DNA of 42,828 bases, taken from the sequence record DRR378314_81, one strand, 5' to 3'. Both the position numbers and the translations under genes were made by a program. The notes below the pieces were generated by a model. The model was not told the DNA's origin. It made no database searches and saw nothing but the letters and a program-made list of their open reading frames with translations. This document shows positions 8,352 to 26,826 of the stretch, piece after piece (the first letter of the stretch is position 1; each line of letters opens with the position of its first letter).

Positions 8352-8956
8352 CTAAAGAAAACCTGACTCAAGTGGATTTCGCTAAAAGCGAATTAATTCC
8401 CGCCATTGTGCAAGATGCCCGTACTGGGGTTATTTTGATGCAAGGTTTTATGAACCAAGAATCACTGGAAGTAACTTTTGAAAAGCAAAAAGTGACCTTC
8501 TATTCGCGTTCAAAAAACCGTTTATGGACCAAAGGTGAAACCTCAGAGAATTACTTAGAGGTAGTCTCGGTGCATACTGATTGCGATTACGATTCAATCT
8601 TAGTGCTTGCCAACCCACTTGGCCCAACGTGTCACTTAGGCACACAAAGCTGTTTTGGCGATGCTGCAAAACCAAGTCTCAGCTTTTTAGCTCAACTTGA
8701 GCAAGTGATTGTTGAGCGTAAAAACGACGACCCAGAGAAAAGCTACACGGCGTCATTATTTGCCAAAGATTTAAGCCGCAGCTGCCAAAAAGTTGGTGAA
8801 GAAGGCGTTGAAGTCGCCCTTGCCGCGATGAAGCACGATAACGATGAGCTGACTAATGAATCTGCCGATTTGATATATCACTTAATCGTGTTACTACAAC
8901 GCCAAGGCCTTGAGCTAAAAGACGTGGTAGGCTGTTTGCAAGGTCGCCATAAGTAA
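8342..8956 (+). CDS. hisIE: Bifunctional phosphoribosyl-AMP cyclohydrolase / phosphoribosyl-ATP pyrophosphatase
   Basis: [39 protein letters not shown]. Confidence 0.97.
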
Positions 8957-9173: not shown

Positions 9174-9923
9174 ATGTTAAAAACACTCTCACACGCTACA
9201 TTGATAATCGCAGGATTACTGTCTACTCAAGCTTTGGCTTGGAATAACGATATGACATTACAAGAGACTAAACAGTTGAGTTTAGCACAATCAAAGCTCA
9301 CTACTTTAGCTGTAGAAAGTGGTTCAGGGTTTTTAAACATTATTGGTAGTGACACGGATGAAGTTACCGTTAAAGCAGAAATTTATCAGTATGAACCGCA
9401 CAATAATTACTGCCTATCTTTAGAACAAAATGCTAAAACAGCCCAGCTGATCGCTAATAATTGTAATAATAAATCTAATAGCAATTATGAAAACCAAACA
9501 CGTATCGACTTAACAGTTTCTGTACCGTCGTCGTTTATGCTAGAAATTAACGATGGCTCTGGTGCAATTGAAATTGAAAATACCGCCGATACAACAATTC
9601 ACGATGGATCAGGAAAAATAGTGGTAAACATGATTTCTGGACCGTTGACAATTGAAGATGGATCAGGCTCTATTGATGCAACAAATATAACAGGCAAGGT
9701 TGAAATACATGATGGCTCTGGCAGCATCGACTTGTCAAATAGTAACGCAGATGTTTTGATTCATGATGGGTCTGGCAATATTGATGTCGAACAAACAACA
9801 GGCTCAGTTACAATTTCAGATGGATCTGGTGGTATTTATGTTAATCAGGCGCAAAGCTTTAAGCTAGTTGCTGATGGTTCTGGGCGCGTAAAAGTTAAAA
9901 ATGTGCAAAACACTAAACTGTAA
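9174..9923 (+). CDS. Exported DUF4097-like beta-strand repeat protein
   Basis: Signal peptide ending ..QALA-W; seven DGSG repeats at roughly 17-19-aa spacing; AAGGA RBS. Confidence 0.8.
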   Translation: MLKTLSHATLIIAGLLSTQALAWNNDMTLQETKQLSLAQSKLTTLAVESGSGFLNIIGSDTDEVTVKAEIYQYEPHNNYCLSLEQNAKTAQLIANNCNNKSNSNYENQTRIDLTVSVPSSFMLEINDGSGAIEIENTADTTIHDGSGKIVVNMISGPLTIEDGSGSIDATNITGKVEIHDGSGSIDLSNSNADVLIHDGSGNIDVEQTTGSVTISDGSGGIYVNQAQSFKLVADGSGRVKVKNVQNTKL

Positions 9924-10196: not shown

Positions 10197-10709
10197 ATGA
10201 AAAAGTCTTTGTCTGCAATATTTACCGCCATGGTTTTAGCTGGCTGTACAAACTTAACTGCTGAGCAACAAGCCCAAATTGACAGCCTCACACCATGCGA
10301 AAAAATAAGCGGTTTACTGTCTGCCTATGATAATCGTTTTGAAGGCTTAAAACGTGCACGCGTTAACACAAAATATATGGAAACCTGGACTGCGAAATAT
10401 AATTTAGTGGGTGATGAATGCCAAATCACAGCTCTTGATAAAGATACAATGACATACCGATGCCAAGATGAGTACAGTGAGCAAAGTGAAGCAGTTGCAC
10501 TTCATCAAAAAGCAGTTGATTTTACTCGACAGTGCTTATCAACTAAAAACTGGTATGAGCAACAAAAAGAGTCGGCTGATTCACTTCGCACAACCTTTGT
10601 ACTTGATGAAACGAAACCAGTGATTTCAATCCATACGGGTAAAACTTTATCTCGCTCTAAGCCTTGGTCTACGTCATTAGAAATAGGTAAACCTGTTGCA
10701 GCTAACTAA
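10197..10709 (+). CDS. Hypothetical lipoprotein
   Basis: MKK plus hydrophobic stretch and lipobox LAGC; AAGGA RBS. Confidence 0.8.
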   Translation: MKKSLSAIFTAMVLAGCTNLTAEQQAQIDSLTPCEKISGLLSAYDNRFEGLKRARVNTKYMETWTAKYNLVGDECQITALDKDTMTYRCQDEYSEQSEAVALHQKAVDFTRQCLSTKNWYEQQKESADSLRTTFVLDETKPVISIHTGKTLSRSKPWSTSLEIGKPVAAN

Positions 10710-10998: not shown

Positions 10999-13422
10999 TT
11001 ATTCGTACTCTAGTAGCGTCCCATACAACCTTGATAACTCAATAGGTTTAGGCACATGGGCGTCGAAACCAAGCTTAAGATACTGTCTGACGTCTTCAAC
11101 CATTACATTTGCAGTTAAGGCAATAATGGGGATTGAATTGTTTAACGTTTTTATTGATTTCAGGGCTTCGACACCATCCATAACCGGCATATGTATATCC
11201 ATTAAAACCAAATCAAATGGCTGATTTTTAAACGCATCTACGGCCAACATACCATTTTCGACAATAACTAAACTTGATTCTGTTTCCTGCAACATCGTTT
11301 TAATTAGCATTTGATTTATCTTATTATCTTCTGCAATTAATATACGTTTACCTCTTAAGGCAGGTGGAGTACACGACTGAGCTTTTACTTTTTTTGGTGC
11401 AACATGTGTTTTCTCCAATGGCAAAGTGACGTCGATTATGGTCCCTCTACCTTTGATACTATTTACTGCAATTTCTCCGCCCATCAACTTAACCAAACTA
11501 ATAGTTATGGACATGCCTAGCCCAGTTCCTCCGTATTCTCGTGTTGTAGATGTATCAGCTTGAGAAAAACGTTCGAAAATACGTCCTTGAGCCTCTTCAC
11601 TCATGCCTATACCGGAATCTTCTACTTTAATCAGGATTGTTTGTTGGCTTTTATGTTCTATACAATCAACAGCTATTTTTACGCAGCCTTGATTAGTAAA
11701 CTTGACCGCATTAGAAGCTAAATTTAGGATAATTTGCTTTACTCGAACCTGATCACCTAGCCAGTTATCATGAAAATTTTTACTCACCTCAATTTTAAAA
11801 TCGATTTGTTGATTGCTTATCAATGCATCTAGATCATATTTTACTGAATTTAGAATATCCACAATAGACAATGGCATTTTTTCTATTTCAATTTTGTTAG
11901 ATTCTACTTTTGAATAGTCCAGAATGTCGTTGATTATAGTGAGTAGGCTTTTAGCAGATGAGGTGGCATTGACTAATATTTTTCGTAAGTCTGTAGATAA
12001 CTCTGCATTATCTAATAGTTGCAGCCCACCAAGTATTGCGTTCATTGGTGTACGTATTTCATGGCTCATATTCGCAAGAAAATCACTTTTAATTTTAGAG
12101 GCGTTCTCAGCTGCCACTCTTGCATTTTCAGACGTTTCTATCGCTTGTATTTTATCAGTAACATCATAACTCACACCAATTACTTTTAATGGAGTGCCCC
12201 ATTTATCGCGTATAACTCGCGCACTCGCTTTCAAAGTTCTTATTTTTCCGTCTGGGTGTACGACCCTAAACTCTGGTTCGTAGAGAGCACCCTTTTCAAT
12301 TGAATCTTTCAACTGCGCATTCGCAAGCTCAATGTCATCAGGGTGTACAGCTTTAACCCAATCATCATAAGACTCTTTAAACTGCTCTTTTTTCAACCCA
12401 TAGAGTGTGAGCATAAGCTCATCCCAAAATAGCTTGCCAGTAATGAGATCCCACTCCCAAACACCAATTTGTGCAGATGTATTGGCCAATTGAATTCTTA
12501 ATGCCAATAAATCTGCTTTTTCAATTGCATTTAATAATTGTTGCTCGGTATTTTTTTGCTCTGATGTATCTTGCACCACTGACCAAATAAGATCATCGCC
12601 ATTTTCATCCATAACTTTAATACCGGAAAGGCGCACAGGAAATGTCACCCCGCTTTTATTAATATACTCCTTTTCATAAGGGCCATACCGCCCGGTCTCT
12701 ACTAAAGATAACAGCTGCTTTTCTTCTTGTTCTTTGTATTTGTCTGGGGTGATTTGCCAATAATCAATGGCATTAATTTCATCGACCGTATACCCTGTTA
12801 TGTGGCTAAATTCATTGTTCACATAATGAAATGCGCCATCCTTTAAAGAGTTCACTGCAATACCAACAGGTGCTAAGTTTACAAAACTCTCAAATTTTAT
12901 TTTTTCTTTTTGATACGCCGCTTTGTAGTGCTTGATATTAGTGTGTGCAGCTTCTAACTGATCTTTAACTTCCATTAAATCAGAGATATCTCTTCCGATC
13001 GCCAGTATTAAGTTCTTATCCTGTATTTGCACTGCACTTAAAGAAACTAGGCAAGGAAACTCAGTACCATCAATTTTAGAGTGCGTCCATTGAAATAACT
13101 GTGGCCCATCAGAGTGAGCTTTTTCGACATACCTATTAGCTAATTCTTCAGAAGATTTACCACATGGTTGTATAGGTGGTGAGATGTCTGATGGGGATAA
13201 ATTTAAGAAGTTATTCTTACTCTCAACGCCATGCATCTTGATTGCTGAATCATTGCATTGAATAAACTTCCCTGAGCTCAAATCGATGATTGATAAAGCA
13301 TCACCTGAGACCTCAAATAGCTTTTTATATTTGTCTCTTTCAAATGAGACTTTTGCTAATTGCTCTCTTAAGTGAAGATTTTCTTTTTCTAAATCACGCT
13401 GATTTTTATTAGACATTACCAT
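10999..13422 (-). CDS. Cytoplasmic hybrid sensor histidine kinase (3 PAS, HisKA, HATPase, REC)
   Basis: H-box FLANMSHEIRTPMN, NLASNAVKFT, DSGIG, GGTGLG; receiver AEDN..N, LMDIHMP, KP. No transmembrane segment is evident. The start may be 13416. Confidence 0.92.
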   Translation of the reverse strand: MVMSNKNQRDLEKENLHLREQLAKVSFERDKYKKLFEVSGDALSIIDLSSGKFIQCNDSAIKMHGVESKNNFLNLSPSDISPPIQPCGKSSEELANRYVEKAHSDGPQLFQWTHSKIDGTEFPCLVSLSAVQIQDKNLILAIGRDISDLMEVKDQLEAAHTNIKHYKAAYQKEKIKFESFVNLAPVGIAVNSLKDGAFHYVNNEFSHITGYTVDEINAIDYWQITPDKYKEQEEKQLLSLVETGRYGPYEKEYINKSGVTFPVRLSGIKVMDENGDDLIWSVVQDTSEQKNTEQQLLNAIEKADLLALRIQLANTSAQIGVWEWDLITGKLFWDELMLTLYGLKKEQFKESYDDWVKAVHPDDIELANAQLKDSIEKGALYEPEFRVVHPDGKIRTLKASARVIRDKWGTPLKVIGVSYDVTDKIQAIETSENARVAAENASKIKSDFLANMSHEIRTPMNAILGGLQLLDNAELSTDLRKILVNATSSAKSLLTIINDILDYSKVESNKIEIEKMPLSIVDILNSVKYDLDALISNQQIDFKIEVSKNFHDNWLGDQVRVKQIILNLASNAVKFTNQGCVKIAVDCIEHKSQQTILIKVEDSGIGMSEEAQGRIFERFSQADTSTTREYGGTGLGMSITISLVKLMGGEIAVNSIKGRGTIIDVTLPLEKTHVAPKKVKAQSCTPPALRGKRILIAEDNKINQMLIKTMLQETESSLVIVENGMLAVDAFKNQPFDLVLMDIHMPVMDGVEALKSIKTLNNSIPIIALTANVMVEDVRQYLKLGFDAHVPKPIELSRLYGTLLEYE

Positions 13423-13607: not shown

Positions 13608-14525
13608 TTAAAAATTACGACCTGTAGTTGCTAAAGAAACGGCCTCTATGGCGCCTCGTTTTTGCATGGTAATATACAAAACCCTGCCATTTTCGCCGCC
13701 AAACGCTACATTAGTAGGAAACTCCCCATTAAGTTCAATGGTATTGATTAACTTTCCTTGTGGTGAAACAACCGCAATTTGTCCTGCCCCATAGCGCGCA
13801 ATATAAAGGTTTCCTTGTTTATCAGAGCGCATACCATCAATACCAAATTCAGAAAAATTGATTAGCAATTGTTTGTTAGATACATTGCCAACTTCATCTA
13901 AATCATAACGCCAGACATTTCGCTGCACACTTTCATTTACATATAATGTTTTGTTATCAGGACTAACCTCAATGCCATTGGTTGTGCCCATATTTGATTC
14001 AAGTAACGTTACTTTACCGTCTTGATTTATTCGCCATAAGTTGCCCGTATTATTTGCCCAATTTGGATCGCTGGCAAATAAAATACCATTACCCATAATT
14101 GCAATATCATTCGGTTGATTCATGCTGTTCTCATGGGCAAATACGTGCACAGAATCAGACACATCTCCCCCATTTGTAAGGGCAGAAACCGACACCTTGA
14201 GGATATTGTGATTCACATAATCAGCAATATACATATTACCCATGCCGTCAAATCGAATACCGTTACCAATCGAACCATTTTCTAGGGTAAGCAATGTATC
14301 CACTTTATTCTTGCCAACAACTCTGCCTATGGTGCCCTGTTGTTTATAATTAACGGCATATAAAACACCATTTTTATCAACAGCTGGACCTTCAATACCC
14401 TGTGTGAATAAACCGTCACTAATATAGTCCTCTGACACATGCATAATTTTAGACTGTATTGCCTCGCCTGCCATTACATTGGCGGCGCAACTAAGTAGTA
14501 AACTTGATAGAATTATCGCTTTCAT
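13608..14525 (-). CDS. Exported SMP-30/gluconolactonase family protein
   Basis: IEGP, PND, NGI..SPD..TLYV, DG...D..GNLY, PTNVAFGG. ATG at 14525 (MKAIILSSLLLSCAANVMA signal peptide) follows AAGGA and sits 1 nt after the GH20 stop. Confidence 0.88.
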   Translation of the reverse strand: MKAIILSSLLLSCAANVMAGEAIQSKIMHVSEDYISDGLFTQGIEGPAVDKNGVLYAVNYKQQGTIGRVVGKNKVDTLLTLENGSIGNGIRFDGMGNMYIADYVNHNILKVSVSALTNGGDVSDSVHVFAHENSMNQPNDIAIMGNGILFASDPNWANNTGNLWRINQDGKVTLLESNMGTTNGIEVSPDNKTLYVNESVQRNVWRYDLDEVGNVSNKQLLINFSEFGIDGMRSDKQGNLYIARYGAGQIAVVSPQGKLINTIELNGEFPTNVAFGGENGRVLYITMQKRGAIEAVSLATTGRNF

Positions 14526-14526
14526 T

Positions 14527-16938
14527 TTATTCCTTATCCTGCGCAGCAACGCAGTGTAAATATAAATCTCGAACTGGGTAAATACCGGCTATCACTAGCT
14601 CATCTGACAAAGACGTTAATGTCAGTAGCTCATCTTCTATTTCTTTAACCGCCTTATTGCTTTTACACACCTCAAGTACGGTTTTAGAGTGTGCTATAAA
14701 CCGCGTTAACTTTTCAAAAACCGGTTGTAATAGTTTCAATTGCTCGCTTTTACTCAGCAAGCCATGCTCAAGAGCTAATGCCCTCTCCCATGTTAAAAGT
14801 TGTTTGTATATGTTTTCAGATGCTTTTTTATTGCCTGATATAAATGCATTTACCTGCTGTTTCAAATAACGTATTTGGTCACTTTCCACTGCTAAAAAAT
14901 CAACATAAGAATCAAGTGGTGCATTTTGATGGTATTTGTCATTTAAAAATTTAATATGATGGCGAGTGTAATAGTGACTTGGTTCAAGTAGTTGTGCCAT
15001 GGTGTTGAGTAAATTTAACGTCCCTATTTGCTCGCGCTCTGTAAGCTTGCTGTTTATTAGCGCCTTAAATCCTGACCGCTGCTGCTTGTTATGTGATAGG
15101 TTAATAACCTTATCTGCAAAAACGTTAACTTTTTCTAACCGCTCATACATCGATTGTGGATTGTTTACTCGCGCTTGTGACCAAAGACGCTCAGCAATGG
15201 CAAATAGCCTCGGCCATATTCGTAAATCAATATTATCTTCAGTTACCATTTCACTCCAAATTGTAGCCTCAGCCCCTAAAATTGAGGCTTCCTGTGTTTT
15301 TGACAATGGTTGCGTAATAGTTACGGGGGCTGGTGATAGTGAATCCTCAATTGTGATCGGGTAGCGGCTATTACCAATCAATACAAAACCTGTATTTTTA
15401 ATAAAGTTAAATTCAAAAGTCAGTGGGCCCATCCAACTATCTAGTTTAGCTGATAGATGTTGAGTAGAAGATGACTCGCTTGTAAGTACAGCTCGTTGAT
15501 GGTGATTATTATTTAATTTAATTAATAGTTGCGAACCTAATAACAGCAGCTCTCCCTTTACAGCTTTGCCTTTTAATCGTTCTATAACAAACTGTTTTGC
15601 CAACCTCTTAGGTTGTGTTAAATCGATTGTTGGGGGGAGTAAAAGAGGGTCATTACGATAGTGATAATCTGTATATTGTGGTTGATCGATATAAAACCCA
15701 GTTGACAACAACCCTTTGTAGCCAGCTTTAGCAATAGTGTTTAAAGAATCGTGCCCTCGCCAAGATTGCACTACAATGTTGTTAGGTAGTTGAGGGTGAA
15801 ATATTTCATCCCAGCCTACCATTACTCGTTGATGTTTAGCGATGATTGGCTGAACTTTACTATTAAAATAGCTTTGTAAATCAGCCCCCGATTGCAACTT
15901 GTATTGTTGCATCAAGTTGTTAATTCTTGAATCCTCAAGCCAGTGTTCTGGGTCAACTTCATCGCCACCGATATGAAAAAAGCGATCTGGAAATAAAGTC
16001 ACCATTTCGCCAATCAGCGTATCAATAAACTCATACACTTCTGGATTTGCAATATCAAGTAAAGGTTTAAAAACTCCCCAATGGCGCTCCATTTCATAGT
16101 GCTTATTTTTGGTCATTAATTTAGGATAAGCCACCGCTATTGCACTGGCGTGGCCTGGCATGCCAACTTCAGGAAGAACTCTTATTCCAAGTAAACTCGC
16201 ATACTCGACAACCTCTTTGATCTCTTGTTGACTGTAATAATCACCATCTGATGCTGCTGTTGTCAGACGTGGGTACTGTTTACTTTCAACTCTCCAGCCT
16301 TGATCGTCCGTTAGATGCCAGTGGAAAACATTAAGCTTTGCCGCGACCATACCATCTAGCTGACGTTTAATGGTTTGCAGTGATAAAAAATGTCGCGCAC
16401 TGTCTATTAATAAGCCACGCCAAGCATAACGAGGTTCATCTTCAATACTGAGTATTGGCAAAGAAATGCCTTTTTTTTCTCTGCGAGCTTCGCCTGTATT
16501 TGCAAGTTGTATTAATGTAGTCAGCGCATGCTGAGCACCAAATACACTTATAGCCTGTATGTTCACCCCGCTGTTACTAATTAATATAGTGTAGCTTTCA
16601 TCTTCACCAAATTGAGGGACAGTTAAAGTCGTTTCTGGTTGATGTATGCTAATTTTGATATCAGCAAGCTCTTTATTTCCTGGTGATATTTTTACAGCGC
16701 CCTGATTTATTCGCGATAAATGTAATTGCAGACGCTGCAACTGAAAGTTTTGTCGTGATTTACTCATCCCCTCGATATACACCGAAAAAGCTGAGCCGAG
16801 ATTGAGCTCAGCGCCATTTTGAGAAATGTATTTAGGCATGGGCATAAGAGGTAAGTCCGAATGAGGATGAACCGAGCTAAAAGCCAGACTTGAAAATAAT
16901 AAACTCAATAAAGTGAATATAGCTTTGTAACAACGCAT
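14527..16938 (-). CDS. ongA: GH20 beta-N-acetylhexosaminidase (OngA-like), exported
   Basis: Signal peptide; RGLLIDSARHF, KLNVFHWHLTDDQGWR, PGH, catalytic HIGGDE, GWDE, WSE, IWPR. The symbol is assigned from gene context. Confidence 0.9.
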   Translation of the reverse strand: MRCYKAIFTLLSLLFSSLAFSSVHPHSDLPLMPMPKYISQNGAELNLGSAFSVYIEGMSKSRQNFQLQRLQLHLSRINQGAVKISPGNKELADIKISIHQPETTLTVPQFGEDESYTILISNSGVNIQAISVFGAQHALTTLIQLANTGEARREKKGISLPILSIEDEPRYAWRGLLIDSARHFLSLQTIKRQLDGMVAAKLNVFHWHLTDDQGWRVESKQYPRLTTAASDGDYYSQQEIKEVVEYASLLGIRVLPEVGMPGHASAIAVAYPKLMTKNKHYEMERHWGVFKPLLDIANPEVYEFIDTLIGEMVTLFPDRFFHIGGDEVDPEHWLEDSRINNLMQQYKLQSGADLQSYFNSKVQPIIAKHQRVMVGWDEIFHPQLPNNIVVQSWRGHDSLNTIAKAGYKGLLSTGFYIDQPQYTDYHYRNDPLLLPPTIDLTQPKRLAKQFVIERLKGKAVKGELLLLGSQLLIKLNNNHHQRAVLTSESSSTQHLSAKLDSWMGPLTFEFNFIKNTGFVLIGNSRYPITIEDSLSPAPVTITQPLSKTQEASILGAEATIWSEMVTEDNIDLRIWPRLFAIAERLWSQARVNNPQSMYERLEKVNVFADKVINLSHNKQQRSGFKALINSKLTEREQIGTLNLLNTMAQLLEPSHYYTRHHIKFLNDKYHQNAPLDSYVDFLAVESDQIRYLKQQVNAFISGNKKASENIYKQLLTWERALALEHGLLSKSEQLKLLQPVFEKLTRFIAHSKTVLEVCKSNKAVKEIEDELLTLTSLSDELVIAGIYPVRDLYLHCVAAQDKE

Positions 16939-17907
16939 TTAACTTTCCCGAACAATAAGGTCTGTGAGCACTTTTTTAGGAATAAGTGCACCATGGTATT
17001 GAATCACCCTAGCAGCAAGGCGGTGGGCAAACTTGGCTGACTCATCATAATCTTTTGTTTTAAAAGTAGCGGATAAAAATCCCGCCGCAAAAGCATCACC
17101 TGCTGCTGTTGTGTCGATAATTTTGCTACTAACAAGTGCCTCTGGTGAGATTCGCAATATACTATCCCCTCCTTTATCTACAACAATACATGGGGCACTT
17201 CCACATCGGATAACAAAAGTATCAGGGTGGTTGGGTTGACTAAAATGACATTGTATAATCTCATCTACATTCGTCGTTCCATATACGCTATATTCATCTT
17301 CATCGGTTAAAAAGACTAGTTCTGCTAAGGCCATTATTTTTTTAAACCAGCCTCTAGCTTCAAAGGCGCCCCATAATGCAGAACGGTAATTATTATCGAA
17401 GATAATTACTCCGCCACGTTGTTTGAATTGAATGAGTGATCTAATCAACAGTTCTCTTTGTGCATCACATAAAACTGCGAGGCTTACCCCCGAAAGATAA
17501 ATTGCATCAAACTCTTTTTCTCCCAAAGCCTCCAATAAAGCAGGGTGTTGCTCAACGTACTGTTTAACTGGGCTTTTAGAACGGTCAAAATCAAATTGGC
17601 GCTCACCACGGTTGTCAAGTTTGATCCAGTATTGCCCTAAATTCATACCTGTTCGAGTCGCTATATATTTTGTTTTTATGCCTGAGCTTTTTAGTAAGTC
17701 ACTCAACTTGTGACTTGCAGTATCATCACCAATAGCTGTTGCATAATAAATAGCGAGAATAGAGTCATGTTTAATCAATTGTGCTAAATACCAAGCAGTA
17801 TTGAAGGTATCACCGGCAAAGCTTGTATCGGCATCAGCACGATGTTCCACCATGCACTCACCAAAAAAAACGATGCTTTTAATATTACTTAGGAATGCTT
17901 TCTTCAT
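16939..17907 (-). CDS. kdgK: 2-keto-3-deoxygluconate kinase (PfkB family)
   Basis: GECMVE, GDTFNTA.YL, FDNNYR..LW, DTTAAGDAF.AGF. Confidence 0.85.
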   Translation of the reverse strand: MKKAFLSNIKSIVFFGECMVEHRADADTSFAGDTFNTAWYLAQLIKHDSILAIYYATAIGDDTASHKLSDLLKSSGIKTKYIATRTGMNLGQYWIKLDNRGERQFDFDRSKSPVKQYVEQHPALLEALGEKEFDAIYLSGVSLAVLCDAQRELLIRSLIQFKQRGGVIIFDNNYRSALWGAFEARGWFKKIMALAELVFLTDEDEYSVYGTTNVDEIIQCHFSQPNHPDTFVIRCGSAPCIVVDKGGDSILRISPEALVSSKIIDTTAAGDAFAAGFLSATFKTKDYDESAKFAHRLAARVIQYHGALIPKKVLTDLIVRES

Positions 17908-19340
17908 TGTGATTGCTCACTTTTATTATTTGATAAATCAAGCATCTGATGCTGTTGCGTAAGCAAACTTGTTACAATACCTAACAACAATGCACTAACA
18001 CATGAAGGAATAATTGGATTACCAAATAATTGCAACCACTGGTTATTTGCCCCCACTAGCACACCAGCAAAAGCTCCGCCAAGTAGAGTGGCAAGAGCTC
18101 CCTGCCATGTGTAACTAGGCCAAAATCGCCCTAAAACCCCCATCACGCATAAACCACTCATTAAAATAGAAATCATTTTAGTGATATAACTAACAATATC
18201 GTTTGACCAAAGAGCTAATAATAAGGCAATTAAAATCGTCACTAACATAGCGAACCGAGAAACTAGCAATTGTGTTGCCTCATTTTGTACGACATTATTG
18301 CCTTTGTTGTAGATATCGCTAATTAATACACTGACCCCAGCGATTGCATCTGAACTTGCGCTGGACAAGGTTGCCGATATACCTGCCAACAAAATAAAAC
18401 CACCTAAGTAAACAGGTAGAACATTTAATGCAATGTATGGAAATGCATAAGATGTATTATCTAACGAACTATCGATTAAGTAGGCACTGGTTCCAATTAT
18501 AGCGGGTAGGAATGCAAAAAATAAATATAAGATACCTGATAGAATGAAAGAACGACGAATTGTTTTAACGCTATCTGCAGCATAAATTCGCTGACGAAAT
18601 GACGGCGTAGCCAATACCCCTACTAATACAGCCAGAAACATCGATATTGCAGGTAATAAACCCACATTTTTATAGGAAAATAATCCCTGTTCAGCAATAA
18701 GAACACTCTTTTTTAATGAATCAACGCCATCAATAGCCTGTATTGAAAAGTATGCCATTAGTATAAAACCTATAAACAATATAATGGCTTGGAGTGAGTC
18801 AGTCCAAATAACTGCTGAGTAACCGCCTAAAATAATGAATACAGCAAGACCAACCCCTATCAGTAATTTAGCTTGTGCATTGCTCAACTCGGTTAACCAA
18901 GACAAATACATACCACCACCAATAAGGTGGGCGCCAAGCCAACCTATGCTCGCCAAATAGATCACAACAGCTAAAATCTGTTTGACCCTTTTATGATTAT
19001 CGACGTAGCTTGCAAGCTCTTCACTCATTGTTGAGAATACTTGCTCTCGAGCAGGTGCAAATAACCACGCTAGTAGTAAAATACCTGTAGCACCGCCAAC
19101 ACCATACAAAGCACCAGCCCATCCATTTTCATATGCATAGCCTACAGCCCCCATCGAGGAGCCTGTGCCAACCATAGTTGCAACGGTCGTACCGAGTGTA
19201 AGAAAAAGGGGCACTTTACGTCCAGCCAATAAATAATCACTCGCATTCTTTTGCTTTCGCGATACATACCAGCTAATTAAAATCATGACCAGTAAGTATA
19301 TGAAAAATGCGAACAGATAATAAGATTGACTTGCAAACAT
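17904..19340 (-). CDS. Sodium:solute symporter, probable importer of the oxidised amino sugar
   Basis: Many hydrophobic helices; DYLLAGR, GG..AVIWTD.LQ, QRIYAA, SATLSS motifs of the SSS family. Confidence 0.9.
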   Translation of the reverse strand: MFASQSYYLFAFFIYLLVMILISWYVSRKQKNASDYLLAGRKVPLFLTLGTTVATMVGTGSSMGAVGYAYENGWAGALYGVGGATGILLLAWLFAPAREQVFSTMSEELASYVDNHKRVKQILAVVIYLASIGWLGAHLIGGGMYLSWLTELSNAQAKLLIGVGLAVFIILGGYSAVIWTDSLQAIILFIGFILMAYFSIQAIDGVDSLKKSVLIAEQGLFSYKNVGLLPAISMFLAVLVGVLATPSFRQRIYAADSVKTIRRSFILSGILYLFFAFLPAIIGTSAYLIDSSLDNTSYAFPYIALNVLPVYLGGFILLAGISATLSSASSDAIAGVSVLISDIYNKGNNVVQNEATQLLVSRFAMLVTILIALLLALWSNDIVSYITKMISILMSGLCVMGVLGRFWPSYTWQGALATLLGGAFAGVLVGANNQWLQLFGNPIIPSCVSALLLGIVTSLLTQQHQMLDLSNNKSEQSQ

Positions 19341-19359
19341 ACGTTCTCCCCTGGCTGTG

Positions 19360-19746
19360 TTAGCTAATCTTGTAACAGGTCACATCAACCTCGACTTTGC
19401 AGTCGACAACCAAGTCTGCAACCATACAAATCCGTGCAGGTGGATGTGCCCCAAAAAATTCAGCGAATACCTTGTTAAAAGACTGAAAATATCGGGCATC
19501 AGTGAGCACAACAGAAACATGTGTCACATGCTCTAGTCCGTAACCGGCTTCAGACATAATTGCAATACAGTTCTCTATTGCTAAACGTGATTGAGGTACA
19601 ATGCCTCCTTCTACGATTTCACCGTCTTTCATCGGTGTTTGGCCTGATACTTTAAGCCACCCACCCGCTTCTACAGCCCGTGAAAAAGGTAAATGCTGGC
19701 CACCTGTTCCTTTCCCACCTTCGGCACCTATTCTTATTATTGTCAT
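19360..19746 (-). CDS. ridA: RidA/YjgF family imine/enamine deaminase
   Basis: PFSRA, VSGQ.P, FNKVF.EFF...PPAR, KVEVD; the catalytic Arg (PAR) is retained. Confidence 0.88.
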   Translation of the reverse strand: MTIIRIGAEGGKGTGGQHLPFSRAVEAGGWLKVSGQTPMKDGEIVEGGIVPQSRLAIENCIAIMSEAGYGLEHVTHVSVVLTDARYFQSFNKVFAEFFGAHPPARICMVADLVVDCKVEVDVTCYKIS

Positions 19747-19756
19747 ACGTTCCTCA

Positions 19757-21223
19757 TTAACTATGGTTATGTCGATTCAAAAACTGTCCAGCTCGCCCAA
19801 ATCCTGAATACTCAGTTGAGTTATCACTTGATTGGTAACTTAAAGTCCCATTTACCCAGACCATCTCTATTCCACTGGCTTTAAATTGGGGGTTGCTATA
19901 ACTTGCATTATCTATAATTTTTTCAGGATCGAATAACACCAGATCAGCAAAAAATCCGACCTCAATTTTGCCGCGTTGACACAATTTAAAATGCTCAGCT
20001 GGCAGCGCTGTCATTTTGTGTAAAGCAAGATTTAATGAAAACAATTTTTCTTCACGACAATAATGACCCAACACGCGCGGAAATGTCCCCCACAACCTTG
20101 GATGTGGATGAGGATCACACGGTAAACCATCCGAGCCAATCATGCTGTGCTCGTAACCTAGAAATGTTTTCACATCTGACTCCAACATGCAGTGATAAAC
20201 AGCCCCTGCTGGCTGTATACGGGAAGCTGCTTCAAGTTGCGAAACTTGCCATTGCTTTGCAATATCACTTAGGCTTTGCTGTGCCATATCAGGAAACGAT
20301 TTAGACCATGTAATAAAAATTTCTGTCTCGTCGTTTACTTGCTTTAGGTCTAAGGTACTTGAACTTGCAGAATATGGATAACAATCGCAACCTATATGCT
20401 GATGCTGCTTTTGCTGTTCAAAGTGAGCGAGTACTTCTTTTGAACGACCCCAATTCTCTTGTCCCGCGCATTTTATATGAGAAATAACTAAAGGTAATTT
20501 AGCCTGTTTAGCAGTCGCAAATGCTTCATCCATAGCATTTATTATTCCCTGAAATTCACTTCGTAAATGAGTGGTATAAAGCCCATCAAATGGCGTAACA
20601 ACCTTAGCTAATTCATTAATTTCACACTGACTGGCCTCTTTTGCATTGTAATAAGCAAGCCCTGTGCTTAAACCGAGCGCGCCTTGTTTCATAGCAACAG
20701 CTAACGATCTTTTCATTTCATTTATTTCATCAACGGTTGCTTCTCGCTCTAAATTATCCATCACTTGTGCGCGTAAACTGATGTGACCTATTAGCATTGC
20801 CAAATTCACACTGGGTTTTACCTCTGCGAAAGCTTTTTTGTAACTCAGCAAATCAGGATAAACAAATTCACTTTGCCCACCAAGTAAGTTAATAGGATCT
20901 CGCACAGCACTAATAGCCGTTGTTGGCACTGCGCTTATGCCGCAATTGCCAGCAATGACTGTTGTCACACCCTGACTTAACTTGGCTGGCACTGTTGGGT
21001 TTCTTAGCACTTCGAGATCATCATGGGTATGAACATCAATAAACCCTGGCGCTAAAATCAAACCTTGTGCGGGAATCGTTTTTCTCGTGTCTATAGTTAG
21101 GTTTTTGCCTATAGCTAAAATAAGATCGTTCTTTATTGCAACATCGAGCTGCTCTATTGGACTTTCTTTATCAATAAAGACCCGAGCTCCTTGAATAATT
21201 AAATCGGCTGATGTGTTTTGCAC
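19757..21223 (-). CDS. ongB: N-acyl-D-amino-acid deacylase family amidohydrolase; probable N-acetylglucosaminate (GlcNAc1A) deacetylase
   Basis: PGFIDVHTHDD, GVTTVIAGNCG, THLRSE, ISHIK, GSDG, HPR.WGTFPR; GTG start. Substrate and symbol are from gene context. Confidence 0.85.
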   Translation of the reverse strand: MQNTSADLIIQGARVFIDKESPIEQLDVAIKNDLILAIGKNLTIDTRKTIPAQGLILAPGFIDVHTHDDLEVLRNPTVPAKLSQGVTTVIAGNCGISAVPTTAISAVRDPINLLGGQSEFVYPDLLSYKKAFAEVKPSVNLAMLIGHISLRAQVMDNLEREATVDEINEMKRSLAVAMKQGALGLSTGLAYYNAKEASQCEINELAKVVTPFDGLYTTHLRSEFQGIINAMDEAFATAKQAKLPLVISHIKCAGQENWGRSKEVLAHFEQQKQHQHIGCDCYPYSASSSTLDLKQVNDETEIFITWSKSFPDMAQQSLSDIAKQWQVSQLEAASRIQPAGAVYHCMLESDVKTFLGYEHSMIGSDGLPCDPHPHPRLWGTFPRVLGHYCREEKLFSLNLALHKMTALPAEHFKLCQRGKIEVGFFADLVLFDPEKIIDNASYSNPQFKASGIEMVWVNGTLSYQSSDNSTEYSGFGRAGQFLNRHNHS

Positions 21224-21227
21224 GTTC

Positions 21228-22100
21228 TTAATCCCCTATCGGAAAACGCTTATCGGCAGGTGGCATATCGCTATTTTTGTCTCGATGTTGATCAAGTTGG
21301 ATCTTCAAGCGACGTAATTTCTCTTTTGAGCGGCGCTGGTTTCTCATCGCCACCTCACTTGAAAGAATATCCAAAGCTGCCATCATTACGTACCTTGCGG
21401 CACTTGGTTTAAAAATATAATCGCTTTCCTGTGTTTTAATTGGCAATTGAAAATCAGCGAGTGCTGAAAGCTCACTATCAGGACAAATAGTAATAATCAC
21501 AGCCCCATACTCTTTTGCTATTTTTGCAGCATCCATCACATCGGGTGAAACGCCACTTAAAGATAAACAAATGACCACATCCCCCTTATTTACTGTTGAG
21601 GCAGTCATACGCATCATCATAGGGTCACTGTAGGCATTAGAAAGTACATCAAGGCGAAAAAAGCGGTTTTGGCATTCTTGGGCTAACATACTGCTGCCGC
21701 CACCGACACCAAAAATTAAGCAATGCCTAGCATGACAAATAGCATCACTCGCTTGCTCAACAATTGCTTCATCAATGGCGCCAGCATTTAATTCTAAAAT
21801 TTCATGGATAGATGTATATACATGAGATAATTGCTTTTTTTCGATAATTTCTGAATTAGTAAAACGCTCTCCGATGGCCGCGGATTGGGTTAGTCTAAAT
21901 TTTAAATCACGAACGTTTTCGCAGCCCAAGCTTCGAGCTAAGCGAGTGATACTGGCATGACTGACTTGTGCCTTATCTGCTAGCTCACTGATTGATGCGG
22001 TAGCTGAAAAATTCAACTCAGACAAAATTAATCTGGCCACTTTATCTTCAGCTGGACTGAAGTGTCCAAGGCCTTCCTTTATTTTACTTATTATATCCAT
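21228..22100 (-). CDS. ongR: MurR/RpiR family transcriptional regulator (HTH + SIS)
   Basis: SI.ELA..AQVS.ASITRL...LG; SIS domain with FGVGGGS and SLSG. The symbol is from gene context. Confidence 0.88.
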   Translation of the reverse strand: MDIISKIKEGLGHFSPAEDKVARLILSELNFSATASISELADKAQVSHASITRLARSLGCENVRDLKFRLTQSAAIGERFTNSEIIEKKQLSHVYTSIHEILELNAGAIDEAIVEQASDAICHARHCLIFGVGGGSSMLAQECQNRFFRLDVLSNAYSDPMMMRMTASTVNKGDVVICLSLSGVSPDVMDAAKIAKEYGAVIITICPDSELSALADFQLPIKTQESDYIFKPSAARYVMMAALDILSSEVAMRNQRRSKEKLRRLKIQLDQHRDKNSDMPPADKRFPIGD

Positions 22101-22111
22101 AAGAAACCTTT

Positions 22112-23359
22112 CTAGAATTGTGTTGAAATGGTCTTAGTGATAACCCACTCATCTTCAACAATACCTATTTGACGCCATTTATCGAAGGTTAAACAAGGAT
22201 GAGACGTGGAAAAACTCATCATATCGCCCACTCGAATTGGTTGATCGTCTGAGTAACGTAACATGCAGTGCTGATCCATTATCTTTTCAACTTTAAATGC
22301 ACTGTTTACAGCACGTAATTGATTGGTTTTAACTGAGTAAATAAGCTCCGCTGTTGGAAGCCCTGCATCAAAAGCAACATCACGTTTGCCCATACCAATA
22401 ATAGCAAGGCCAGGCTCAGGGAGTGACAAAACATACGCCCAGATACTTAAGCTATTTTCTAGATCGCCAGGGATATCATAGGCTATCTGACTCCTCGCCA
22501 TTATTGCCTGCTGCGCTTTTTGATAAATGCCAGTGTCATGGATAAGATAGCAACCGGGTCTAAGTATGATGTTGAAATTGTCCGAGCATGAATTGTCATA
22601 AAGTGTTTTCGCTACAATGTCGTACCATGCTGAACCTGCTCCCGTGATAATAGGTTTATCTGTTTTATAGCGATTTTCAACTTGCAGTCTTTTTGCCAGG
22701 GTGCTTACTTCATCAACAAAAACTTTCACTTGCTGTGCAGCGTTTTCACCGCCTATAACGCCCTCATAAAAAGCAATTCCCATCAATTCTAGGCTGGTAT
22801 ATTGCTCACAGGTAGCAACTAAACTTGATATATCTTTTGCTGAACGCAAGCCACAGCGCCCACCTTTTATACCCACTTCTAATAAAACATTAACACTCAA
22901 ATTACGCTCAGCAAAAAATTCACCTATATCTGTTAAGTTTTCTATTGAGTCTGCAAAACAGTAAAACTCAACTTTGCTGCTTTCTAACCATTTTGCAATT
23001 TGTTCAAAATGAAATTTACCAACCAACTGATTTGCCATAATCACACGCGTAATACCGGCTTCAAATGCATTTATAACTTGCGCAACTGTGGCTAACGTTA
23101 TCCCCCATGCACCTGCATCTAGTTGTATTTTAAACAATTCTGTTGACATGGTTGTTTTACCATGAGGGGCAAGCAACATGTTATGTTTAGCAGTAAAGTC
23201 TGCCATCCATTTTGCATTTTTTTTAATTTTATCTTGTTTAATAACAGCCACAGGTAAACTAACTTGTTCTTTAAATATATCCCAACCTGTTTGTTGTAAT
23301 TGCTTTATACAGCCACTACCTTTGCTCAATTCAGACATTTTTATCCTTATATTACTCAC
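22112..23359 (-). CDS. ongC: Fold-type III PLP-dependent deaminase/dehydratase; probable D-glucosaminate deaminase yielding KDG
   Basis: LAPHGKTTM (PLP lysine), GGRCG, FYEG, GAGS, LRPGCY, GKRD, DQH, SHPC (metal His/Cys). Substrate is from gene context. Confidence 0.85.
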   Translation of the reverse strand: MSNIRIKMSELSKGSGCIKQLQQTGWDIFKEQVSLPVAVIKQDKIKKNAKWMADFTAKHNMLLAPHGKTTMSTELFKIQLDAGAWGITLATVAQVINAFEAGITRVIMANQLVGKFHFEQIAKWLESSKVEFYCFADSIENLTDIGEFFAERNLSVNVLLEVGIKGGRCGLRSAKDISSLVATCEQYTSLELMGIAFYEGVIGGENAAQQVKVFVDEVSTLAKRLQVENRYKTDKPIITGAGSAWYDIVAKTLYDNSCSDNFNIILRPGCYLIHDTGIYQKAQQAIMARSQIAYDIPGDLENSLSIWAYVLSLPEPGLAIIGMGKRDVAFDAGLPTAELIYSVKTNQLRAVNSAFKVEKIMDQHCMLRYSDDQPIRVGDMMSFSTSHPCLTFDKWRQIGIVEDEWVITKTISTQF

Positions 23360-23372
23360 AATTCCATTTGAC

Positions 23373-23423
23373 GAAATAAACCTTGTCAGGACTGCTAATA
23401 GCTAACGAGCAGCCTTGACAAGG
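23373..23423 (-). terminator. Intra-operon stem-loop after the TonB receptor gene
   Basis: Minus strand CCTTGTCAAGGCTGCT..AGCAGTCCTGACAAGG (long stem, 23381-23423) followed by TTTATTT. Confidence 0.7.
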
Positions 23424-23431
23424 ACAGTCCA

Positions 23432-26400
23432 TTAGAAGGTTGCTCTAACACTTAACGCAAAACGTCTGTCTGTTGTAAAGTTTAAAGCTTGAGTTTTGGT
23501 GCCCGCTTGATCCATTTGGTATCGAGTCTTGGTTTCAGTATCCAATAAGTTACTAGCTTCAAGTCCCACTTTCCAATGGTCATTTATGCTGTAGTAAATG
23601 CTTGCATCCATCATGCCTGATGCCTCTGCATATGCTGGAACATATTCTTCAGATTCACGAAGGGTAAGTAAATACTCTGAACGCCATGTGTAAGCGACAC
23701 GCATTGATATTTTGTCGTATTCATACATCCCGACTAAATTCATATTCTTATCAGAATAGCCTTGCAATGGCAGCCCACTGAATACACGGAATGTATTACG
23801 AGTATCAGTAATTGGATCACCGTTTTCATCAAACGCCAATGTACCCGCTGAGACTTCATTTGGATCTTCCAGTCCATTCTGATCGATCAAAGTAAAGTTA
23901 AATTGTAAGCCTAAACCGCTCCAAGCACCTGGCAGCATGTCATAAAATTGTGAGTATGAAAATTCAGCACCTTGAATTGTTCCTGAACCCGTATTGGCTG
24001 GGCCATAGGCTGAAATATCGTATTGCTCACCATTAAAAGTTCGCGCCATATTAAATGCTTTATTACGAATAATATTGTCTAATTTCTTATGGAACAAACC
24101 AACAGTGACATAGCCTGCTTCTGCAAAGTACCATTCAGTGGTTAGATCTGTATTGATAGACTCTTCCGGCTCTATATTAGGGTTACCCGACAGTGCGGTT
24201 ACTTCAATATCGTCAATCCCCACAACAGGGTTGTTTGTTTCATCATAATCAGCGCCCGGTGTTTGTAATCTTCGATTATAATCTAAATTGATAATGCTAA
24301 TATTTCTAGCATCCATCAAGTTAGGGTAAAACAATGCTTTTGATGCGCCAAAACGCACAACAACGTCTTCTGATACACCAAAACTAAGATTTAAACTTGG
24401 CAGAATTGTACTGTAATCAGTCCCATCTACTGTACTTAAAGTGGATTCACCATTAGCAAGATCATAGTAACGCTTGTATTCATCTTGCTGCATAACATTG
24501 TTTAAAGAAGTCCCTTCTTCACCTCGCTTAATCGTTGCAGGTTGCACAACTGCTCCTGTCGATTGCAGCTTGTAATTGACGTAACGCAAACCCACGTTAC
24601 CTACAATGGGCATATCGTTAAACTCGAAATCGAAATCTGTGCGCACATAGAACTCTGTACGCTTTTCATTACTCGAACTAATATTATGAGCAGCAAATGG
24701 GCCTTCTACGCGGTCAAGTTTATCTTCATAAGGAACATAGGTACCTGTACACATACCATTATTTGCTGCACTGTTAGTTGCATTATGCCACCCATCTTTA
24801 CAACCTTGGCGAAGAGAGTTTGCATAGTTCTTTACTAGGTCCATCTTAGGAAATAGAAAGTTATTTACATTCCCAACTAACACTTGACCATTGTAGTAAT
24901 CTGAAAAATCAACACGCTCAAACAGTTCTGGACGATTCACTGCTGCTGCGGCATTACGGTCATCTTGCACCCAAGGTGTACCTATAGCAGACCAGCCCTC
25001 GTAAGCTGTATCTCTAACTGTCAGATCTTTGTCTGACATATATGCACCGGCACTAATACTAGTGACATTACCATCTAATTCATATTTAAAATCAATTTTG
25101 TAACTATCTGCTTCAGCTGTATTGTGTTCCACTTGCTCCATGCCACTGCCTAAAAATAAATTAGGTACAGGTCCATTCCAGTCTTCATTAGGTGACCAAC
25201 CCGCAGTCATAATATTGTCACTCAAAAACTCAACGGTTGGTCTGCTACCGCGCATATCTAAAAAATATGGAGAAACTACATGTACATGGTTACCACGGGT
25301 TTGACCTGACATGCTGTAGTTTTGTACGTGCTTATCTGAGTCTATCATTTGATAATCAAAGTCGATTGTCAGCCTATCAACAGGCTTTAAAGTCAATTTA
25401 AATGAGGTGTCATTGACCGTATTTTCATTGTAGTTCCAACGACTTCGATAAAAGAATGGGGTTTCAGGGCTTACACCTAAAGCAATACCCGACGTGACAA
25501 AATTATCACTCGTCGTAAGCGGATAACCATTAGCAGCATCATCTTGCCAATTTTGAGATGATCCCATGAACCCTTTGAAGCCCTGTGCAGCCTGGCCTAT
25601 TTGACGTTCATTCCATTCTAAAGATGCTTTAGATCGAATGTGCTCAACCGTTGCAACGATGGTCTCGTCATCGTTTGCCCACTGTAAAGATGAGGTTAAG
25701 CCTTGGCGTTTACGGTCGTTATCTGCTGTGCTCATATGGATGGCAACAGGCACATGCCAGATACTCCCAGCAGGCTGATTAGGAAGCGCTGGGCCATCTA
25801 CGGGTGAAGAAGGGTCTACCCCTGTGATGCCGCCCCATTGATCAAGCGTTGGGATAAAAGCATCACCTCGTGAATGAAAGTTACCTAAACCAACACCATC
25901 CCCGCGGGTTTTATACTCAGATTGTGAAGCGGCAATTAAAAATCCAAACTTACCTGAATTAGTTTCCCACTTGTCAGAAAATAAAGCTGAGAAAGACGGC
26001 GTTACTTCTTCTCTAAAATCAGCATAGTTTGCTTTTGCATTAACAGAAATAAGTTGCTTATCAGAATCAAAAGGCTTTCTTGTCAACAAATTAACCGTGC
26101 CTGAGATACCACCCGAAATCAAGTCAGCAGTTTGGTTTTTTACCACTTCAACCGCACCAAGTAACTCGGCAGGAAAGTCCTCATAACTTAGACCCCCACT
26201 TGCATTGGCACTAAATGCATCACGGCCATTTACTTCTGAGCGGACCCTGTCTAGGCCACGAACTAAAACACCTGTTCCTTCATCTGCGTAATGCTTAGGA
26301 TCATCCGAAGAAGCGAATCGCTCAATTGTTACACCAGGCACACGTTGTAAAGCTTCTGTCACCGATTTGTCAGGCAGTGCGCCAATATCAGACGCGGTAA

Positions 26401-26641
26401 TAACATCTTTCACTGTATCAGCAAATCGCTTAAGGTTTTGCGCGCTATTAATGCTACCGCGTATACCGCTTACTTCGATGACCTCTATGTCTTCATCCGC
26501 ATTGGCAGCGCTGTCATTTTCAGCCAATGCAAAAGATGAAACAAATAGCGGGCTTAAACCCATTAACGCATAAGTAACTGCAAGGCTTAACCTTGTTCGT
26601 TTAGTCTGATTTTTTCCTGTATCGATGACTAGTTTTGACAT
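23432..26641 (-). CDS. TonB-dependent receptor, probable uptake of (oxidised) chito-oligosaccharides
   Basis: Signal peptide, TonB box IEVIEVSGIRGS, plug motifs DIGALPD.SVTEALQRVPGV and VRGL, C-terminal Phe. ATG at 26641 is preferred to the track start at 26737. Confidence 0.93.
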   Translation of the reverse strand: MSKLVIDTGKNQTKRTRLSLAVTYALMGLSPLFVSSFALAENDSAANADEDIEVIEVSGIRGSINSAQNLKRFADTVKDVITASDIGALPDKSVTEALQRVPGVTIERFASSDDPKHYADEGTGVLVRGLDRVRSEVNGRDAFSANASGGLSYEDFPAELLGAVEVVKNQTADLISGGISGTVNLLTRKPFDSDKQLISVNAKANYADFREEVTPSFSALFSDKWETNSGKFGFLIAASQSEYKTRGDGVGLGNFHSRGDAFIPTLDQWGGITGVDPSSPVDGPALPNQPAGSIWHVPVAIHMSTADNDRKRQGLTSSLQWANDDETIVATVEHIRSKASLEWNERQIGQAAQGFKGFMGSSQNWQDDAANGYPLTTSDNFVTSGIALGVSPETPFFYRSRWNYNENTVNDTSFKLTLKPVDRLTIDFDYQMIDSDKHVQNYSMSGQTRGNHVHVVSPYFLDMRGSRPTVEFLSDNIMTAGWSPNEDWNGPVPNLFLGSGMEQVEHNTAEADSYKIDFKYELDGNVTSISAGAYMSDKDLTVRDTAYEGWSAIGTPWVQDDRNAAAAVNRPELFERVDFSDYYNGQVLVGNVNNFLFPKMDLVKNYANSLRQGCKDGWHNATNSAANNGMCTGTYVPYEDKLDRVEGPFAAHNISSSNEKRTEFYVRTDFDFEFNDMPIVGNVGLRYVNYKLQSTGAVVQPATIKRGEEGTSLNNVMQQDEYKRYYDLANGESTLSTVDGTDYSTILPSLNLSFGVSEDVVVRFGASKALFYPNLMDARNISIINLDYNRRLQTPGADYDETNNPVVGIDDIEVTALSGNPNIEPEESINTDLTTEWYFAEAGYVTVGLFHKKLDNIIRNKAFNMARTFNGEQYDISAYGPANTGSGTIQGAEFSYSQFYDMLPGAWSGLGLQFNFTLIDQNGLEDPNEVSAGTLAFDENGDPITDTRNTFRVFSGLPLQGYSDKNMNLVGMYEYDKISMRVAYTWRSEYLLTLRESEEYVPAYAEASGMMDASIYYSINDHWKVGLEASNLLDTETKTRYQMDQAGTKTQALNFTTDRRFALSVRATF

Positions 26642-26759: not shown

Positions 26760-26826
26760 TGTTACTTTGTAACTATTAATAAAAAAGCAACTGTTACTTT
26801 TTAACATACCAGTAACTAAAGTAAAA
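26760..26826. promoter_or_regulatory. Tandem palindromic candidate operators for the RpiR regulator
   Basis: TGTTACTTTGTAACT (26760-26774) and TGTTACTTTTTAACA (26792-26806) start 32 bp apart; a weaker related site lies at 26811-26826. Confidence 0.6.

Follow-up and report, generated by a model that had tools for sequence, protein, structure and literature searches.

We analyzed a 42,828-nt stretch of DNA (the window) from sequence record DRR378314_81 at the gene level by computational means. Nine genes between positions 13608 and 26641 form a locus that we identify with high confidence as an ong cluster for the use of C1-oxidized chitin products; its steps have been shown in Pseudoalteromonas prydzensis, and we assign them here by homology. 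The core pathway has already been published (PMC9537276) and is not new. The ninth gene codes for a lactonase-family protein and is the only gene of the nine that is absent from the published eight-gene cluster. We tentatively propose, at slightly below even confidence, that this gene founds a family of secreted N-acetylglucosaminono-lactone lactonases that clear the lactone produced by lytic polysaccharide monooxygenases (LPMOs). Such an enzyme would supply a missing step, which would explain why, in distant marine bacteria, the gene adjoins GH20 genes in ong as well as nag clusters and why LPMO strains unable to consume N-acetylglucosaminic acid (GlcNAc1A) retain it. The same proposal takes the palindrome TGTTA-N5-TAACA as the operator of the OngR repressor, marking a third, unlinked ong receptor.

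Organization of the locus

We defined the locus from a list of open reading frames (ORFs) and from Pfam and NCBIfam profile scans. All nine ORFs are on the minus strand, in the order TonB receptor, fold-III pyridoxal phosphate (PLP) enzyme, RpiR regulator, amidohydrolase, Rid protein, SSS transporter, PfkB kinase, GH20 enzyme, and SMP-30/gluconolactonase. The gaps between them, from receptor to lactonase, are 72, 11, 4, 10, 19, -4, 0, and -23 nt, and seven of the eight are shorter than 20 nt or overlapping. An initial annotation made from the sequence had described nine co-oriented, packed genes of these families, and the ORFs, profile scans, and gaps bear it out. It had also listed the lactonase correctly, but it passed over the absence of this gene from the published cluster. 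The features of the locus are as follows.

23432..26641, minus strand: TonB-dependent receptor, 1069 aa; TIGR01782, 555 bits, above cut-off; probable importer of oxidized chito-oligomers
22112..23359, minus strand: ongC, fold-type III PLP enzyme, 415 aa; PF01168 and PF14031; match to 3GWQ at E 8e-109; Lys68 in PHGKT
21228..22100, minus strand: ongR, RpiR-family repressor, 290 aa; PF01418 and PF01380
19757..21223, minus strand: ongB, GlcNAc1A deacetylase, 488 aa; 571.8 bits to PpOngB (9KB1)
19360..19746, minus strand: ongD, Rid-family imine/enamine deaminase, 128 aa; PF01042; Arg105 in PAR
17904..19340, minus strand: ongIT, sodium:solute symporter, 478 aa; PF00474
16939..17907, minus strand: kdgK, PfkB-family kinase, probable 2-keto-3-deoxygluconate (KDG) kinase, 322 aa; top NCBIfam family KdgK
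14527..16938, minus strand: ongA, GH20 hexosaminidase with a signal-peptide-like N-terminus, 803 aa; PF00728; HIGGDE at 322-327
13608..14525, minus strand: ninth gene, secreted SMP-30-family lactonase, 305 aa; PF08450, 146 bits against a cut-off of 26.3; candidate N-acetylglucosaminono-1,5-lactone lactonase
26760..26806, unstranded: pair of TGTTA-N5-TAACA palindromes, candidate operators for OngR; 119-165 nt upstream of the receptor ATG

For the lactonase, the most likely start is ATG 14525, 1 nt past the GH20 stop, giving 305 aa; each of its six nearest homologs is also 305 aa. We place the receptor start at ATG 26641, in agreement with the initial annotation; the longest ORF would open at TTG 26737. 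The near homologs that carry a name are from Pseudoalteromonas.

The ninth gene codes for a secreted SMP-30-family protein

The lactonase has a signal-peptide-like N-terminus and is the only PF08450 gene found in the genome nearest to the window (G001). Its AlphaFold model is a six-bladed beta-propeller (pLDDT 91.7), and the nearest folds are the RPA3624 lactonase (8DJF, TM 0.77) and a Caulobacter xylonolactonase (7PLB), at 22-23% identity. Residues E45, N139, N183, and D230 do not vary across an alignment of 68 sequences selected from the 120 matches listed plus the query, and we take this Glu/Asn/Asn/Asp center to be the metal ligands. The propeller and the conserved center place the protein in the SMP-30/gluconolactonase/LRE family (PF08450). 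Compared with 8DJF, 7PLB, and SMP30, the protein shares the fold (TM 0.74-0.77) and the center, but identity is only 20-24%, and it differs in its signal-peptide-like N-terminus and its recurrent GH20, nag, and ong neighbors. Sequence and structure searches returned no close solved or characterized relative.

We also looked for this protein in the literature. The string "lacton" does not occur in the main text of the pathway paper (PMC9537276), nor does "lactonase" occur in the OngB paper (PMC12017989). The available text and supplements of two proteomic and transcriptomic sources (PMC7917724, PMC13281251) contain no mention of the lactonase on chitin. In the literature searched, which leaves subscription journals largely uncovered, we found no role for a lactonase in the ong pathway and no description of the lactonase, operator, or receptor of the nine-gene layout.

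The neighborhood of the gene points to an N-acetyl amino-sugar substrate. The parent 1,5-lactone of N-acetylglucosamine (GlcNAc) is itself a strong inhibitor of GH20 enzymes. LPMO products are reported to end in a 1,5-lactone that is in equilibrium with the acid, and the open-chain acid is the form seen in the OngB crystal (PMC12017989). With its sp2 C1, such a lactone resembles the transition state of hexosaminidases, and GH20 enzymes are inhibited by lactone derivatives at nanomolar levels (PMC6499197, PMC8834866).

In the pathway that we propose, LPMO and chitinases encoded elsewhere would release oligomers ending in GlcNAc1A or its 1,5-lactone, and the receptor would import these oxidized oligomers. 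Periplasmic OngA would cut off GlcNAc1A, OngIT would carry it into the cell, and OngB would remove its acetate. OngC would then release NH3 to give KDG, with OngD probably clearing an imine intermediate. KdgK would convert KDG to KDPG (2-keto-3-deoxy-6-phosphogluconate), which an unlinked Eda would cleave. The secreted, metal-dependent lactonase would open GlcNAc-type 1,5-lactones to the acid. This would both rid GH20 of an inhibitor that resembles the transition state and provide the acid in open-chain form. We give even odds to this activity, with its two benefits of protecting GH20 enzymes and supplying acid. A protective role would be consistent with finding the gene in nag clusters and also in strains that have an LPMO but no ongB. 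Two reported properties of the system weigh against the proposed activity: the lactone opens spontaneously under alkaline conditions, and the Km of PpOngB is similar from pH 6 to 8 (PMC12017989).

A comparable logic has been described for cellulose. The fungal aldonolactonase AltA (Peng et al. 2017, as cited in PMC11610957) was reported to relieve inhibition of beta-glucosidase. Likened by description only, both would be secreted lactonases that remove an exo-glycosidase-inhibiting lactone formed by oxidative cleavage of a polysaccharide; AltA belongs to cellulose and fungi, whereas the window lactonase belongs to chitin and bacteria.

The lactonase recurs beside GH20 genes but is also found alone

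We examined the distribution of the lactonase in 140 genomes of the genus. The lactonase is present in 88, ongB in 44, and LPMO in 106, and all 44 ongB genomes have the lactonase. The distance between lactonase and ongB is 6.1-7.0 kb in 29 of these 44; the lactonase is farther away on the same contig in 10 and on another contig in five; in G116, one of these five, a break between contigs falls within ongA.

Outside the genus, an order-wide sample of 301 genomes contained 10 genomes with the lactonase. Three carry it in an ong cluster, four in a nag cluster, one after anmK, and two in unrelated places. In one ong cluster (G830), the lactonase is at the opposite end, divergent from ongC and sharing the operator pair. 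In the four nag clusters (G628, G649, G789, and G800, which represent two genera), it adjoins a chitobiase-type GH20 gene; in G789 it is upstream of GH20-nagK-nagB-nagA-nagP-like. Both a rearranged Gilvimarinus ong cluster (L038) and the remnant of a cluster, ongC-ongA (L106, in G033), retain the lactonase behind ongA. Metagenome loci with a GH20 gene directly upstream of the lactonase number 16 of 54, 13 of which have less than 1 kb upstream. A nagB-GH20-lactonase arrangement in metagenomes is on a distant branch of the lactonase tree, and its GH20 proteins nest among OngA proteins. Some loci recur between searches, and the context counts are not independent. A class-wide search found the lactonase in only 3 of 400 genomes.

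In the strongest alternative, the eight genes are an ong cluster, but the ninth codes for a secreted lactonase with a general action on sugar or aryl lactones; it would have joined ongA on a single occasion and traveled with it since, contributing nothing to chitin use. We regard this as a real contender, though somewhat less probable than our proposal. Several observations favor it and weigh against a dedicated enzyme. Within the genus, 44 genomes have the lactonase and no ongB, and in 14 the gene is apart from the cluster. Of 58 unlinked copies, we examined 20; 19 have no adjoining ong gene, and the scanned neighbors are mostly unrelated (glutathione S-transferase, ABC ATPase, DUF5916, and ferrochelatase genes, for example). 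Unlinked copies mostly lack the operator. In the order-wide sample, the lactonase is absent from 19 of 27 ongB genomes. In a separate set of 80 ongB loci from genome contigs, it is within 10 kb of ongB in only 5, and in 5 of the 20 that have ongA. The nearest solved structures, besides being distant in sequence, are of mixed function.

The association with LPMO also falls on this side. In raw counts, 86 of the 88 lactonase genomes have an LPMO, but the link is gone after phylogenetic correction on a gyrB tree (p = 1), and we therefore do not use this co-occurrence as support. The tree covered 136 of the 140 genomes; G073 had no gyrB match, and G115, G117, and G124 were dropped for low completeness. 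On the same tree, lactonase and ongB changed the same way in 7.2 pairs and opposite ways in 0.0, with no difference in 7.8 (median p 0.016). This link mostly reflects joint loss of the whole physical block, a further point against the proposal. The window's M6 protease, included as a control, was not associated with LPMO, ongB, or the lactonase.

Three observations weigh against this alternative. In amino-sugar clusters, the lactonase is found in at least three places: it can follow ongA, diverge from ongC, or stand on either side of the chitobiase gene in nag clusters. The nagB-GH20-lactonase arrangement also occurs on a distant branch. Finally, no ongB genome of the genus lacks the gene. These observations favor our tentative reading of the ninth gene as a GlcNAc-type lactonase.

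A second alternative concerns the source of the lactone. A periplasmic dehydrogenase or oxidase could make lactone from free GlcNAc or chitobiose, and the lactonase would open it for the ong enzymes independently of any LPMO. The occurrence of the lactonase in nag clusters would suit this route, as would two ongB genomes of the genus (G126 and G116) that carry the lactonase yet have neither an LPMO nor a GH18 match. However, the locus has no dehydrogenase gene, the P. prydzensis ongC, ongB, and ongD genes are reported to stay repressed on GlcNAc (PMC9537276), and G628 and G649 carry the lactonase in nag clusters without ongB. The G126 cluster (L131: 4218-16494, in a 100% complete genome) may also be decaying, because an IS30 transposase gene is inserted between ongD and ongIT and kdgK is absent from the cluster. 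We consider this route improbable, and retain the LPMO-derived lactone as the preferred substrate source.

We noted two further features of unlinked lactonase genes. Three of them (L110, L114, and L115) are followed by a TonB receptor gene and a GHL10 glycosyl-hydrolase-like gene; a GH10-domain protein is reported to be induced on chitin (PMC13281251). In P. prydzensis, PPRY_b0243, a secreted SMP-30 gluconolactonase, is listed in a secretome table on chitin that has no non-chitin control (PMC9537276). PPRY_b0243 is 43 locus numbers away from the ong cluster, and it is probably the unlinked ortholog of the lactonase because an ADH_N_2 oxidoreductase gene is near it and near unlinked lactonase copies.

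A candidate OngR operator precedes a distinct receptor

We aligned the region upstream of the receptor with those of four relatives and found two TGTTA-N5-TAACA palindromes, 32 bp apart, at 26760-26774 (one mismatch) and 26792-26806 (exact). Of 78 de-duplicated related loci, 47 have a site with at most one mismatch in the 500 nt upstream of ongC. Nineteen of the 78 loci have two sites, spaced 31-33 bp apart in 18 of the 19. In random 500-nt windows, which are mostly coding and so understate the chance rate, one or more sites occur in 2.3% and two in 0.45%. The pattern was found upstream of ongIT in 1 of 49 cases and upstream of ongA in 1 of 48. OngR is reported to repress the receptor and ongCRBD, but not ongIT-kdgK-ongA (PMC9537276). 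The position of the sites, upstream of the receptor or ongC and not of ongIT or ongA, matches this regulation. PMC9537276 names no operator site.

One result counts against the operator: neither the window (4 sites against 3.3 expected) nor G001 (10 against 6 expected) is enriched for the pattern, and so only its position serves as evidence. A scan for promoters gave 31 against 39.7 in shuffled sequence and for terminators 17 against 11.1, nothing clearly beyond the shuffles. We think it probable that the nine genes are expressed as a single unit from an operator pair to which OngR binds.

The candidate sites resemble the operators of the RpiR-family regulators RccR and HexR of Pseudomonas, which are 15-bp palindromes that start with TGT, end with ACA, and occur in two copies upstream of aceE (PMC5489143). 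The cores of those operators (TGTAGT-N3-ACTACA and TTGT-N7-8-ACAA) and their spacing are different. Searching de novo for palindromes upstream of the unlinked lactonase genes produced no convincing candidate. Two other occurrences in G001 may be due to chance: an exact copy at C29:22800 (L369), about 240 nt upstream of a contig-terminal gene for a 418-aa protein, and, at C40:266851-266882 (L370), a pair of exact sites 17 bp apart, located between two genes.

The receptor itself departs from the published layout. Compared with the receptors of six other ong loci, it is 34-37% identical over about 200-235 N-terminal residues and 22-24% in the C-terminal part. Judged by this sequence comparison, it is not an ortholog of OngOT-1, the receptor of the eight-gene-layout clusters. 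OngOT-1 is the one ong gene reported as not conserved, and the receptor does not define the cluster (PMC9537276). The window receptor is 56-61% identical to receptors in ong clusters of Colwelliaceae and Cellvibrionaceae. In G112 and G058, an 83% identical ortholog is unlinked, with a one-mismatch operator-like site upstream. We see it as a possible third ong receptor, on a sequence comparison that leaves OngOT-2 of P. prydzensis aside.

Eight genes match the published ong cluster

The ong cluster of P. prydzensis ACAM 620 has eight genes, PPRY_b0286-b0297, in the order given in Supplementary Table 3 of Jiang et al. (2022; PMC9537276). The eight window genes match it in family and order (ongC-R-B-D-IT-kdgK-ongA with a TonB receptor gene in front) and are of similar lengths. 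The window differs in its ninth gene, joined to ongA, and in its different, co-oriented receptor. The initial annotation had assigned the locus as ong-type with a published core, and the eight families, the gene order, and the OngB score and pocket residues agree with it; the pathway chemistry it proposed is supported by PMC9537276, PMC12017989, and the OngB comparison. Pseudoalteromonas sp. H105, whose lactonase is 86% identical to that of the window, is already in the paper's table of ong genomes (PMC9537276).

Against PpOngB (9KB1; Wang et al. 2025, PMC12017989), the window OngB reaches 571.8 bits; against the D-aminoacylases AfDam and BbDam, it reaches 392.5 and 342.1 bits. Identity to PpOngB is about 55% (258 of 469 columns, counted by eye from the printed alignment). 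PfOngB, which is 57% identical to PpOngB, was shown to be GlcNAc1A-specific (PMC12017989). Among the 20 metal and pocket residues named in PMC12017989, 19 are identical, including C94, H219, and H249 of the subtype V Cys/His/His site, the catalytic Asp (D365), S289, and Q295. Ser289 and Gln295 correspond to Ser292 and Gln298 of PpOngB, the residues reported to separate OngB from D-aminoacylases (PMC12017989). The sole change is Cys345 in place of Gly348, a position that varies (G, C, N, S, Q) among 96 homologs.

Family annotations would suggest instead that the locus degrades ordinary N-acyl-D-amino acids or D-serine. P. prydzensis OngC also deaminates D-serine and D-threonine (PMC9537276), and KleDacyl (9G5M), a Klebsiella enzyme with the same Gln, hydrolyzes N-acetyl-D-Met, -Phe, and -Trp (PMC12149444). 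The KleDacyl result bears on the ong assignment as well, although turnover of N-acetyl-D-Met is weak (kcat/Km 2.8 per min per mM). Where D-aminoacylases carry Thr (Ser292 position) and Leu/Arg (Gln298 position), however, the window hydrolase carries Ser and Gln; in addition, a GH20 gene and a KDG-kinase-like gene are coupled into the operon, and three assayed OngB enzymes showed no activity on N-acetyl-D-amino acids (PMC12017989). We consider a D-amino-acid function very unlikely. KleDacyl carries the SSS and Gln residues typical of OngB, its score against the window OngB is 547 bits, and OngB and GlcNAc1A go unmentioned in the main text of PMC12149444. By sequence, KleDacyl is probably an OngB that was assayed on the wrong substrates.

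For the remaining genes, the ong assignment is less direct. OngB is the only protein compared directly with a characterized P. prydzensis sequence; the others were compared with five clusters of the eight-gene layout. Identities were 45-47% for OngC, 55-58% for OngR, 54-56% for OngB, 81-87% for OngD, 50-53% for OngIT, and 40-43% for OngA, and the kinase is 33-34% identical to the KdgK proteins of the four that possess kdgK. The best NCBIfam family for the kinase is KdgK, but its 250 bits are under the cut-off of 400. These last two points, the indirect comparison and the low kinase score, count against the assignment. Presumably Lys68 of OngC, in PHGKT, is the PLP lysine. OngC has the same length and position as its P. 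prydzensis counterpart, and we predict that it converts glucosaminate to KDG and NH3. OngR scores 158 bits against HexR (NF008451), below the cut-off of 296, and is not assigned to HexR. In P. prydzensis, ongD is essential, and its role is not known (PMC9537276). OngA clusters with the GH20 proteins of other ong clusters and apart from two other GH20 proteins of G001 in a FastTree tree of 52 GH20 proteins that lacks the ACAM 620 OngA sequence.

Two further observations concern the makeup of ong clusters. Several clusters (L013, L030, L131, L367, and L381) lack kdgK, and ongIT is directly before ongA there. Genes resembling tryptophan halogenases (PF04820) turn up repeatedly next to ong clusters, nag clusters, and the lactonase (L009, L016, L038, L157, L163, and L361-L363).

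The block also shows an unusual pattern of relatedness. The OngB proteins of G001, G011, and G079 are 76-78% identical to those of a distant gyrB clade (G051, G050, G118, and G129) and 54% identical to those of their gyrB neighbors G120 and G083, and the lactonase and OngA trees agree with this pattern. These trees suggest that the nine-gene block may have moved horizontally. GC content gave no sign of a foreign island.

The nearest genome encodes LPMOs and chitinases

None of the 31 window proteins scanned is an LPMO, chitinase, or KDPG aldolase, as the initial annotation had stated; the remaining ORFs, mostly nested, lie outside the scan. We looked for these functions in G001, which carries the locus at 99% identity across 14,001 nt. 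G001 encodes a pair of AA10 LPMOs in which the signal peptide is followed by an N-terminal His, along with two chitinases and two KDPG aldolases; one aldolase gene adjoins edd and the other is within an alginate locus. A chiC-lpmo-chiA cluster is on the same contig, about 207 kb from the locus. P. prydzensis ACAM 620 is similar in having an unlinked cdc cluster and two kdgA genes (PMC9537276).

The initial annotation had raised the scenario of an LPMO-less scavenger of other microbes' oxidized chitin products, which the absence of an LPMO from the window and the possible existence of such genomes in the genus (G126 and G116) would allow, but we find it highly improbable given the enzymes of G001 and the presence of an LPMO in 42 of the 44 ongB genomes of the genus. 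G126 is either a true scavenger or a genome with a decaying cluster. G116, at 90% completeness, likewise has no LPMO or GH18 match.

Flanking genes

The locus is flanked by a his operon (1883-8956) and a PAS hybrid histidine kinase gene (10999-13422), 185 nt downstream of the lactonase, on one side, and by genes for an S46 peptidase (26964-29123) and an M6 (InhA-like) metalloprotease with PKD domains (39349-42333) on the other. These are ordinary genes, and we did not see them conserved beside ong clusters in the loci compared. ORFs 9174-9923 (249 aa), 10197-10709 (170 aa), and 36419-38104 (561 aa) have no Pfam match above cut-off, and the latter two also have no NCBIfam match.

Implications

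If the lactonase acts on GlcNAc-type lactones, it would add an enzyme to a pathway that has been described as complete. It would also mean that bacteria actively manage the lactone made by LPMOs, and it would give a function to the common "SMP-30/gluconolactonase" annotation in marine genomes. Such a lactonase might improve mixtures for chitin saccharification. The candidate operator, in turn, would make the OngR regulon predictable from sequence.

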